Positions 18,075 to 19,214 of a stretch of 19,214 nucleotides of DNA are shown one piece after another. Each line of letters starts with the position of its first letter. The stretch's first letter is position 1. The notes under the pieces were generated by a model. The model did not search any database, was not told where the DNA came from, and saw only the letters and a list, made by a program, of their open reading frames with translations. The translations under genes and the position numbers were made by a program. The DNA is from Candidatus Thorarchaeota archaeon (GTDB taxonomy: Archaea; Asgardarchaeota; Thorarchaeia; Thorarchaeales; Thorarchaeaceae). Where the stretch lies: positions 1 through 19,214 of the forward strand of contig RDOC01000013.1 of NCBI GenBank assembly GCA_011364985.1, written 5' to 3'.

Positions 18075-19214
<1,140 letters not shown>

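Follow-up and report, generated by a model that had tools for sequence, protein, structure and literature searches.

Locus 908 of the archaeal 16S rRNA gene is a described BHB intron site in Pyrobaculum, Caldivirga, Aeropyrum and Caldiarchaeum (Jay and Inskeep 2015, PMC4496867). Only endonuclease-coding introns (4) and partial or remnant introns (6) are reported at this locus, while hairpins of <50 nt are found at other loci (PMC4496867). For Asgard archaea, the intron papers cover tRNA genes only (Valentin-Alvarado et al. 2024, PMC11291895; bioRxiv 10.64898/2026.10.13.758758), and rRNA is unmentioned in the text of that preprint. In the literature searched, which left most subscription journals outside, we found no report of Asgard rRNA BHB introns or of hairpin introns of <50 nt at locus 908. 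Here, we analyzed a 30-nt insert at this locus in the 16S rRNA gene of a Thorarchaeota genome. We consider it very probable that the insert is an archaeal BHB intron that is excised by EndA, with the exons joined by RtcB; it may derive from a LAGLIDADG element. The site and the mechanism are already known; the size class at this site and the lineage are new.

The window, that is, the whole stretch of DNA that was analyzed, is a complete contig of 19214 bp from a 1.7-Mb genome assembled in 22 contigs and 74% complete. The last 1140 bases of the contig are 16S, and the gene runs off the contig end. This was the single SSU match (n = 1) in the 1.7-Mb, 74%-complete genome; given this completeness and the truncated gene, a second, intron-free 16S copy could exist. 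Two features define the locus:

18075..19214, + strand: 16S rRNA gene, 5' three quarters, matching RF01959 (SSU_rRNA_archaea) in cmscan with 943 bits over model positions 1-1088
18949..18978, + strand: ORF-less insert and putative BHB intron, 30 unaligned nt at RF01959 positions 854/855 (cmscan)

Using the coordinates of the 907-926 primer site, we placed the insert after E. coli position 908, at the 908/909 bond between GAA and ACUU. The insert breaks the universally conserved stretch that ends helix 27, and its deletion gives back the helix-27 sequence. The junctions 18948/18949 and 18978/18979 are the only boundaries that give back the universal GAA-ACUUAAAGGAAUUGG, and neither can slide. 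The earlier note, made from the sequence alone, had described a 30-nt insert at 18949-18978 at 16S position 908; cmscan and the non-sliding junctions showed both its coordinates and its sequence to be correct. The Asgard host suspected at the time was also borne out, as a 200-nt segment of the locus in G011 is identical to a contig of Candidatus Thorarchaeota isolate K_3_bin.28, and other relatives likewise have Thorarchaeota titles. The 30 nt have no room for any ORF and hence encode no homing endonuclease. Positions 908-909 lie in the conserved ribosome core adjoining the decoding region, where inserts of 30-900 nt are unlikely to be tolerated.

The insert and its flanking exons can be laid out as a BHB motif with the following elements:

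18940..18942, + strand: outer helix h, 5' exon strand (AAG), pairing with 18980-18982; the 3 bp are invariant in 10/10 aligned alleles
18943..18946, + strand: central helix H, 5' exon strand (ACUG), 4 positions pairing with 18973-18976; three pairs are invariant
18947..18949, + strand: 5' bulge (AA, then U after the predicted cut at 18948/18949); the exon consensus fixes the register, which is common to all alleles
18950..18972, + strand: intron hairpin h', 18950-18958 pairing with 18964-18972 around a 5-nt loop at 18959-18963
18973..18976, + strand: central helix H, intron strand (CAGG); CAG stands here in 68/70 short locus-908 inserts
18977..18979, + strand: 3' bulge (UC, then A after the predicted cut at 18978/18979), placed like the 5' cut, two bases beyond the central helix in the 3' direction
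18980..18982, + strand: outer helix h, 3' exon strand (CUU), in invariant pairing with 18940..18942

In the mature rRNA, bases 18940..18942 are part of the helix-27 tetraloop and stem. In this allele, three Watson-Crick pairs and, at the fourth position, an A.G mismatch make up the central helix; the A.G is common to most Thorarchaeota alleles with an exon A there. The hairpin contains a U.U and a C.A mismatch, and G011 has U.G in place of U.U.

We compared this layout across alleles and observed a single register throughout. Pairing joins the exon AAG to the CUU located after the first base of the 3' exon, and the exon (A/G)CUG to the intron CAG plus one base. One bulge is formed by the two bases after this CAG plus one together with the first 3'-exon base, the other by the last two 5'-exon bases with the first intron base, and a hairpin fills the middle. 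In ten aligned 30-nt alleles, 9/9 hairpin pairs had changed on both sides, and 90% of hairpin cells were paired, compared with 24-44% when the partners were slid by one to three columns. The covariation score of these alleles was 0.529 against 0.183 in shuffles, and 0/500 shuffles reached the observed value; the exon-side pairs are invariant, so they are uninformative for covariation. We also examined 69 distinct short alleles, drawn from many archaeal phyla; 60 of them form four central-helix pairs and 8 form three. The fourth central pair is A-U, G-C or G-U in 60/69, and alleles with an exon G at this position have C or U opposite in the intron. Mean hairpin length in the same 69 alleles was 7.2 pairs, compared with 1.6 in shuffled introns. 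Relative to this genome, the carriers of 30-nt alleles have exons that are 96-98% identical and introns that are 53-70% identical, indicating that the primary sequence is nearly free while pairing is kept. By sequence comparison, the BHB pattern is far beyond chance.

The fold of the individual allele is less favorable. Unconstrained folding of the locus did not return the BHB, whose energy is -3.1 kcal/mol compared with -10.9 for a register shifted by one base; the BHB is thus not the minimum-free-energy fold. The shifted register would leave the 3' junction outside any bulge. In longer contexts the native helix-27 hairpin is preferred over the BHB fold, and the two compete. We do not count the failed unconstrained prediction against the BHB model, because the motif would be bound by protein and would compete with the mature fold; it does show, however, a weak motif in this allele. 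Such a weak, competing fold implies that the enzyme would have to hold the motif, and that the motif would have to arise ahead of helix 27 or in its place. Measured by the strict definition of a BHB, this allele has suitable bulges and cut positions but a deficient central helix of three pairs and A.G. The motif at 18949-18978 is a relaxed BHB rather than a strict one, and it agrees with the relaxed definition of the (alpha-beta)2/epsilon2 type, as the register is kept across alleles and the genome has two EndA paralogues. The earlier note had the junctions folding as a BHB with both cuts after the second bulge base. This register exists and the cuts lie as described, but the A.G, U.U and C.A mismatches and a fold that is not of minimum energy qualify the claim.

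Next to the anatomy stands the polymorphism of the site. The same bond in relatives holds 0, 30, 31, 37, 45, 47, ~310, 849 or 900 nt. It is empty in G010 and G014, which belong to the same genus, and also in G017, G018, G019, G028 and G029, and it carries 30 nt in G011, in G032 and in both 16S copies of G027. G011 is a same-genus, independent assembly (K_3_bin.28) with the same 30 nt apart from two substitutions, one of which improves pairing; further alleles occur in at least 7 other Thorarchaeota assemblies and in one metagenome contig. When 400 genomes of the phylum were read by alignment length, ~15-16 members of the family had an insert and 18 had none, counting only family members whose assembly covers the site. 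The inserts in the family measured 30, 31, ~40, 45, 47, ~740, 849 and 900 nt (~740 nt in G392, by alignment length), and presence and absence were seen within single genera. Other Asgard families contained only scattered carriers. The exact boundaries, the presence/absence and length polymorphism at one bond and the covariation together support a BHB-type intron at locus 908.

Some family members have alleles identical to those of Thorarchaeota TEKIR_14 and BLK6-1.bin.124. The latter MAG (G027; L037, L079) has two 16S copies with different 30-nt locus-908 alleles, one of them nearly identical to the allele of another genus (TEKIR_14). The G033 contig (L028) stops exactly at the 5' splice junction, which suggests that presence/absence polymorphism of the intron breaks 16S assemblies. 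A sediment DNA contig joins the 3' exon (18979) to a different upstream sequence ending in CAG plus three bases; this upstream sequence is another locus-908 intron allele of that community.

Short inserts at this locus extend far beyond the family. A pattern scan of one genome per prokaryote species for inserts of 20-50 nt at locus 908 returned 70 contigs across Archaea, and 68 of the 70 inserts end in CAG plus three bases. By record title, the hosts comprise Thorarchaeota, Hermodarchaeota, Wukongarchaeum, Bathyarchaeia, Nitrososphaerales, Hadarchaeota and Thermoplasmata, as well as Woese-, Pace-, Nano- and Micrarchaeota. The earlier note had placed such introns mainly in hyperthermophiles, which reflects the literature, but the genomes place short locus-908 inserts also in many uncultured lineages without known hyperthermophily. 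Archaeal 16S genes with locus-908 mini-inserts were also seen in MAGs with bacterial titles (L049, L059, L060, L066, L093), namely Dormiibacterota, Acidobacteriota, Methylomirabilota, Deferrimicrobium and 'bacterium'; these contigs are probably binning contaminants.

A proposed survey of Asgard 16S genes at locus 908 for further inserts and endonuclease-bearing alleles yielded both, the latter in G024 and G035. G035 has a 900-nt allele with an intact 279-aa ORF and G024 an 849-nt allele with an intact 262-aa ORF; both ORFs match LAGLIDADG_3 (PF14528), and both alleles have the same end register as the short ones. Neither the short nor the long (849/900-nt) locus-908 alleles matched a group I intron in Rfam. 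The 47-nt allele of G034 has both termini in common with the long introns and is accordingly a deletion derivative of a long intron, evidence that such decay happens.

The 30-nt family shares only the UUU start and the CAG end with the long introns. We rejected an 8-nt match between this intron and the inner stem of the long intron of G024, which is within chance. Among metagenome contigs, we sought long introns that share this 5' end and contain an ORF; of 98 pattern hits, one lay in 16S context and proved to be another 30-nt allele. Likewise, a search of the genome for other copies of the 30-mer, as a mobile repeat would leave, found only chance 10-11-mers. The Thorarchaeota 30-nt mini-alleles have CGA(C/U) in common at positions 15-18; from this and their uniform length of 30 nt, they are probably of one origin. 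The simplest history for the 30-nt element, plausible but unproven, is decay of a homing intron, given that sister genera carry endonuclease-bearing alleles at this very bond. The suggestion that it is a homing-intron remnant draws on these LAGLIDADG alleles and is plausible only, as we found no continuous sequence linking the long introns with the 30-nt family.

We then considered the splicing machinery. The genome encodes two EndA paralogues (n = 2) of 188 and 213 aa, matching PF01974 at 105.6 and 70.7 bits, each with an N-terminal domain and a catalytic-type C-terminal domain, and one RtcB (n = 1; PF01139, 594 bits). The EndA genes lie on contig 11 near 364.6 kb and on contig 15 near 156.1 kb, and the RtcB gene on contig 17 near 79.6 kb. 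The two paralogues fit an EndA of the (alpha-beta)2 type, a cleaver of non-canonical motifs, and the enzyme here is probably a two-subunit (alpha-beta)2 endonuclease that tolerates relaxed motifs. A passage of PMC5829648 states that (alpha-beta)2/epsilon2 endonucleases accept relaxed BHB motifs, and the two-paralogue pattern is reported in 44/60 Asgard genomes in a preprint (bioRxiv 10.64898/2026.10.13.758758). An ARAGORN intron search of the whole genome predicted 34 tRNAs and assigned introns to 17, some of these calls being implausible. The window contains two tRNA genes:

6409..6559, - strand: tRNA-Leu(CAA) with an anticodon-loop intron and a second ~30-nt insert in the T arm (ARAGORN after deletion)
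14497-14574, - strand: tRNA-Ala(CGC), intron-free, the only window tRNA at standard ARAGORN/Rfam settings, which missed the tRNA-Leu

ARAGORN recognized tRNA-Leu(CAA) only after 28-32 nt were deleted within 6424-6460, and its inserts would be further substrates of the splicing endonuclease. The intron-rich, EndA-dependent RNA maturation postulated from the sequence agrees with the two EndA genes and RtcB, with the introns in 17/34 ARAGORN tRNAs and with the doubly interrupted tRNA-Leu(CAA).

Public RNA data containing this 16S or close relatives amounted to 13 datasets, mostly wetland metatranscriptomes, each with 0.41-0.53 of the sampled words; the host of this 30-nt intron is probably from wetland or sediment. 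We checked three RNA runs and one DNA run through their Logan contigs, which are ~60-100 nt long and come from mixed archaea. None of these short contigs bridged 18948 to 18979 for this strain, and none listed covered the insert. The joints near the site differ in their letters and are of low depth; their source is thus relatives, which may simply lack the intron.

We weighed the BHB intron against three other accounts of the 30 nt. The insert might be a small expansion hairpin that is kept, unspliced, in the mature 16S rRNA. Asgard rRNAs are known for unusual expansion segments, of which this could be one; the insert alone folds as a hairpin (-6.7 kcal/mol), and the RNA data examined show no removal. 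We nevertheless judge a retained hairpin very improbable. It leaves unexplained the two symmetric 3-nt bulges and the conserved CAG, which pairs with the exon and breaks the native helix-27 stem, and it has to contend with ORF-bearing inserts of 740-900 nt at the same bond in sister genera and with a site in the universally conserved core that close relatives keep free of any insert. In a second account, the insert is an intervening sequence whose excision is not followed by ligation, so that the 16S rRNA would persist as two pieces, a course known for some intervening sequences of bacterial rRNA. The BHB anatomy predicts cleavage and is of itself no proof of ligation, and none of the short RNA contigs examined bridges the exons for this strain. 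Against this, RtcB is present in the genome, a break at 908/909 would sever helix 27, and ligation follows BHB cuts in archaeal rRNA introns; we know of no studied case in which these cuts were not then ligated. Fragmentation therefore seems about as poor a candidate as retention.

The last account, an assembly artefact or an insert in a non-functional spare 16S copy, is suggested by the position of the gene at a contig end of a 74%-complete MAG. We hold it to be the least probable of the three, with hardly any chance of being right, as the independent assembly G011 repeats the 30 nt with two substitutions, one of them improving pairing, alleles recur in the at least 7 other Thorarchaeota assemblies and the metagenome contig, and the gene is otherwise free of defects across the 1088 matched positions of the SSU model. 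For the preferred BHB intron, we infer the following course of cleavage, ligation, circularisation, folding and removal from RNA. In the precursor, the 3' CAG(G) of the intron would pair with the exon CUG that later becomes the 3' strand of helix 27, the exon AAG would be bound by the first CUU of the 3' exon, and a 9-position hairpin would occupy mid-intron. Each junction would thus sit in a 3-nt bulge, one on either strand, two bases 3' from the central helix. EndA would cut both bulges, RtcB would join the exons and probably circularise the 30-mer, and helix 27 would fold after exon joining. The ancestor of the element may have been a LAGLIDADG homing intron that, having spread at locus 908 among Thorarchaeota, lost its ORF, a history for and against which the chances appear about evenly balanced.

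Inserts at other positions of Asgard 16S genes were recorded alongside locus 908. The 16S of G011, the closest relative (98% identical), has three more inserts of ~30 nt (L005:2143-2172, 2214-2243 and 2349-2378) near E. coli 1345, 1386 and 1501, two of which end in GGGGAA and pair with exon CCCU/UCCC in the same BHB register. The 16S in the window stops short of these three sites, and this strain may carry the G011-type inserts as well. Sister genera have additional inserts of precisely 30 nt elsewhere in 16S (L015:1944-1973, L016:406-435, L016:1962-1991 and L009:2148-2177, at about 696, 1339, 1363 and 1386), and their size is strikingly uniform in Thorarchaeota rRNA. In G034 (L011, reverse strand, reverse complement 2314-2403), three hairpin units of ~30 nt in tandem, all with a similar ACAUUUCGU loop, make up a 90-nt insert that separates helices 44 and 45 of 16S. 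Further 16S inserts were found in G057 (L032:780-1479 and 1750-1792), G014 (L023, reverse strand, 1735-2345), G048 (L029:1810-2720 and 3070-3102) and G060 (L033, reverse strand, 1820-1854). These lie near 722 (700 nt), 957 (43 nt), 979 (611 nt), 1051 (911 nt), 1218 (35 nt) and 1397 (33 nt), and several of the sites coincide with known intron loci of Thermoproteales and Caldiarchaeum. No 23S rRNA gene was found in this 74%-complete genome. The uniform 30-nt inserts at at least 7 Thorarchaeota 16S sites could conceivably represent, rather than so many separately decayed homing introns, one proliferating class of ORF-less mini-introns that spreads at the RNA level, e.g. by reversed EndA/RtcB action and copying into DNA, a proposal that we think unlikely. 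If true, the archaeal lineage closest to eukaryotes would possess a protein-spliced counterpart to intron spread.

Our findings extend protein-spliced rRNA introns from hyperthermophilic Thermoproteota to Asgard archaea, and the pattern scan widens them to Nitrososphaerales, Bathyarchaeia, Woesearchaeota, Hadarchaeota and Thermoplasmata, where they are undescribed in the literature searched. There are also practical consequences. The insert splits the 907/926 primer binding site two bases from the primer 3' end. Amplicon surveys should therefore under-count the carriers, to which about half of the Thorarchaeota genomes with assembly coverage of the site belong. Moreover, their 16S genes tend to break assemblies. 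The uniform 30-nt size and the relaxed motif, in turn, constrain what Asgard EndA accepts.

Among described systems, the archaeal rRNA group I introns (Nawrocki et al. 2018, PMC6125680) are likewise hosted by rRNA genes, often have LAGLIDADG ORFs and sometimes sit beside BHB introns. The 30-nt insert differs in that it cannot hold a catalytic core (P3-P8), and we rejected a group I assignment on this length and the lack of an Rfam match. The locus-908 introns of Jay and Inskeep agree in insertion point, host gene, BHB-type junction and the presence of endonuclease-bearing alleles in some hosts; their hosts are thermophilic Thermoproteota and Aigarchaeota, whereas here the host is an Asgard archaeon and the intron a 30-nt hairpin. 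The Thermoproteales 16S hairpin introns of <50 nt (loci 901, 978 and 1205/Pog.S1205) are also ORF-less, about 30 nt long, patchy in distribution and built of a hairpin and a BHB, but they differ in sites and lineage, and the Thorarchaeota inserts have a uniform 30 nt across several 16S sites. Pog.S1205 reportedly spreads by co-conversion with a neighbouring homing intron; unlike it, the insert at 18949-18978 has no neighbouring long intron that we could see beside it. With the non-canonical BHB introns of Asgard tRNA genes, finally, the insert shares the presumed EndA/RtcB pathway, a similar size, the relaxed motifs and the high intron load of the phylum.
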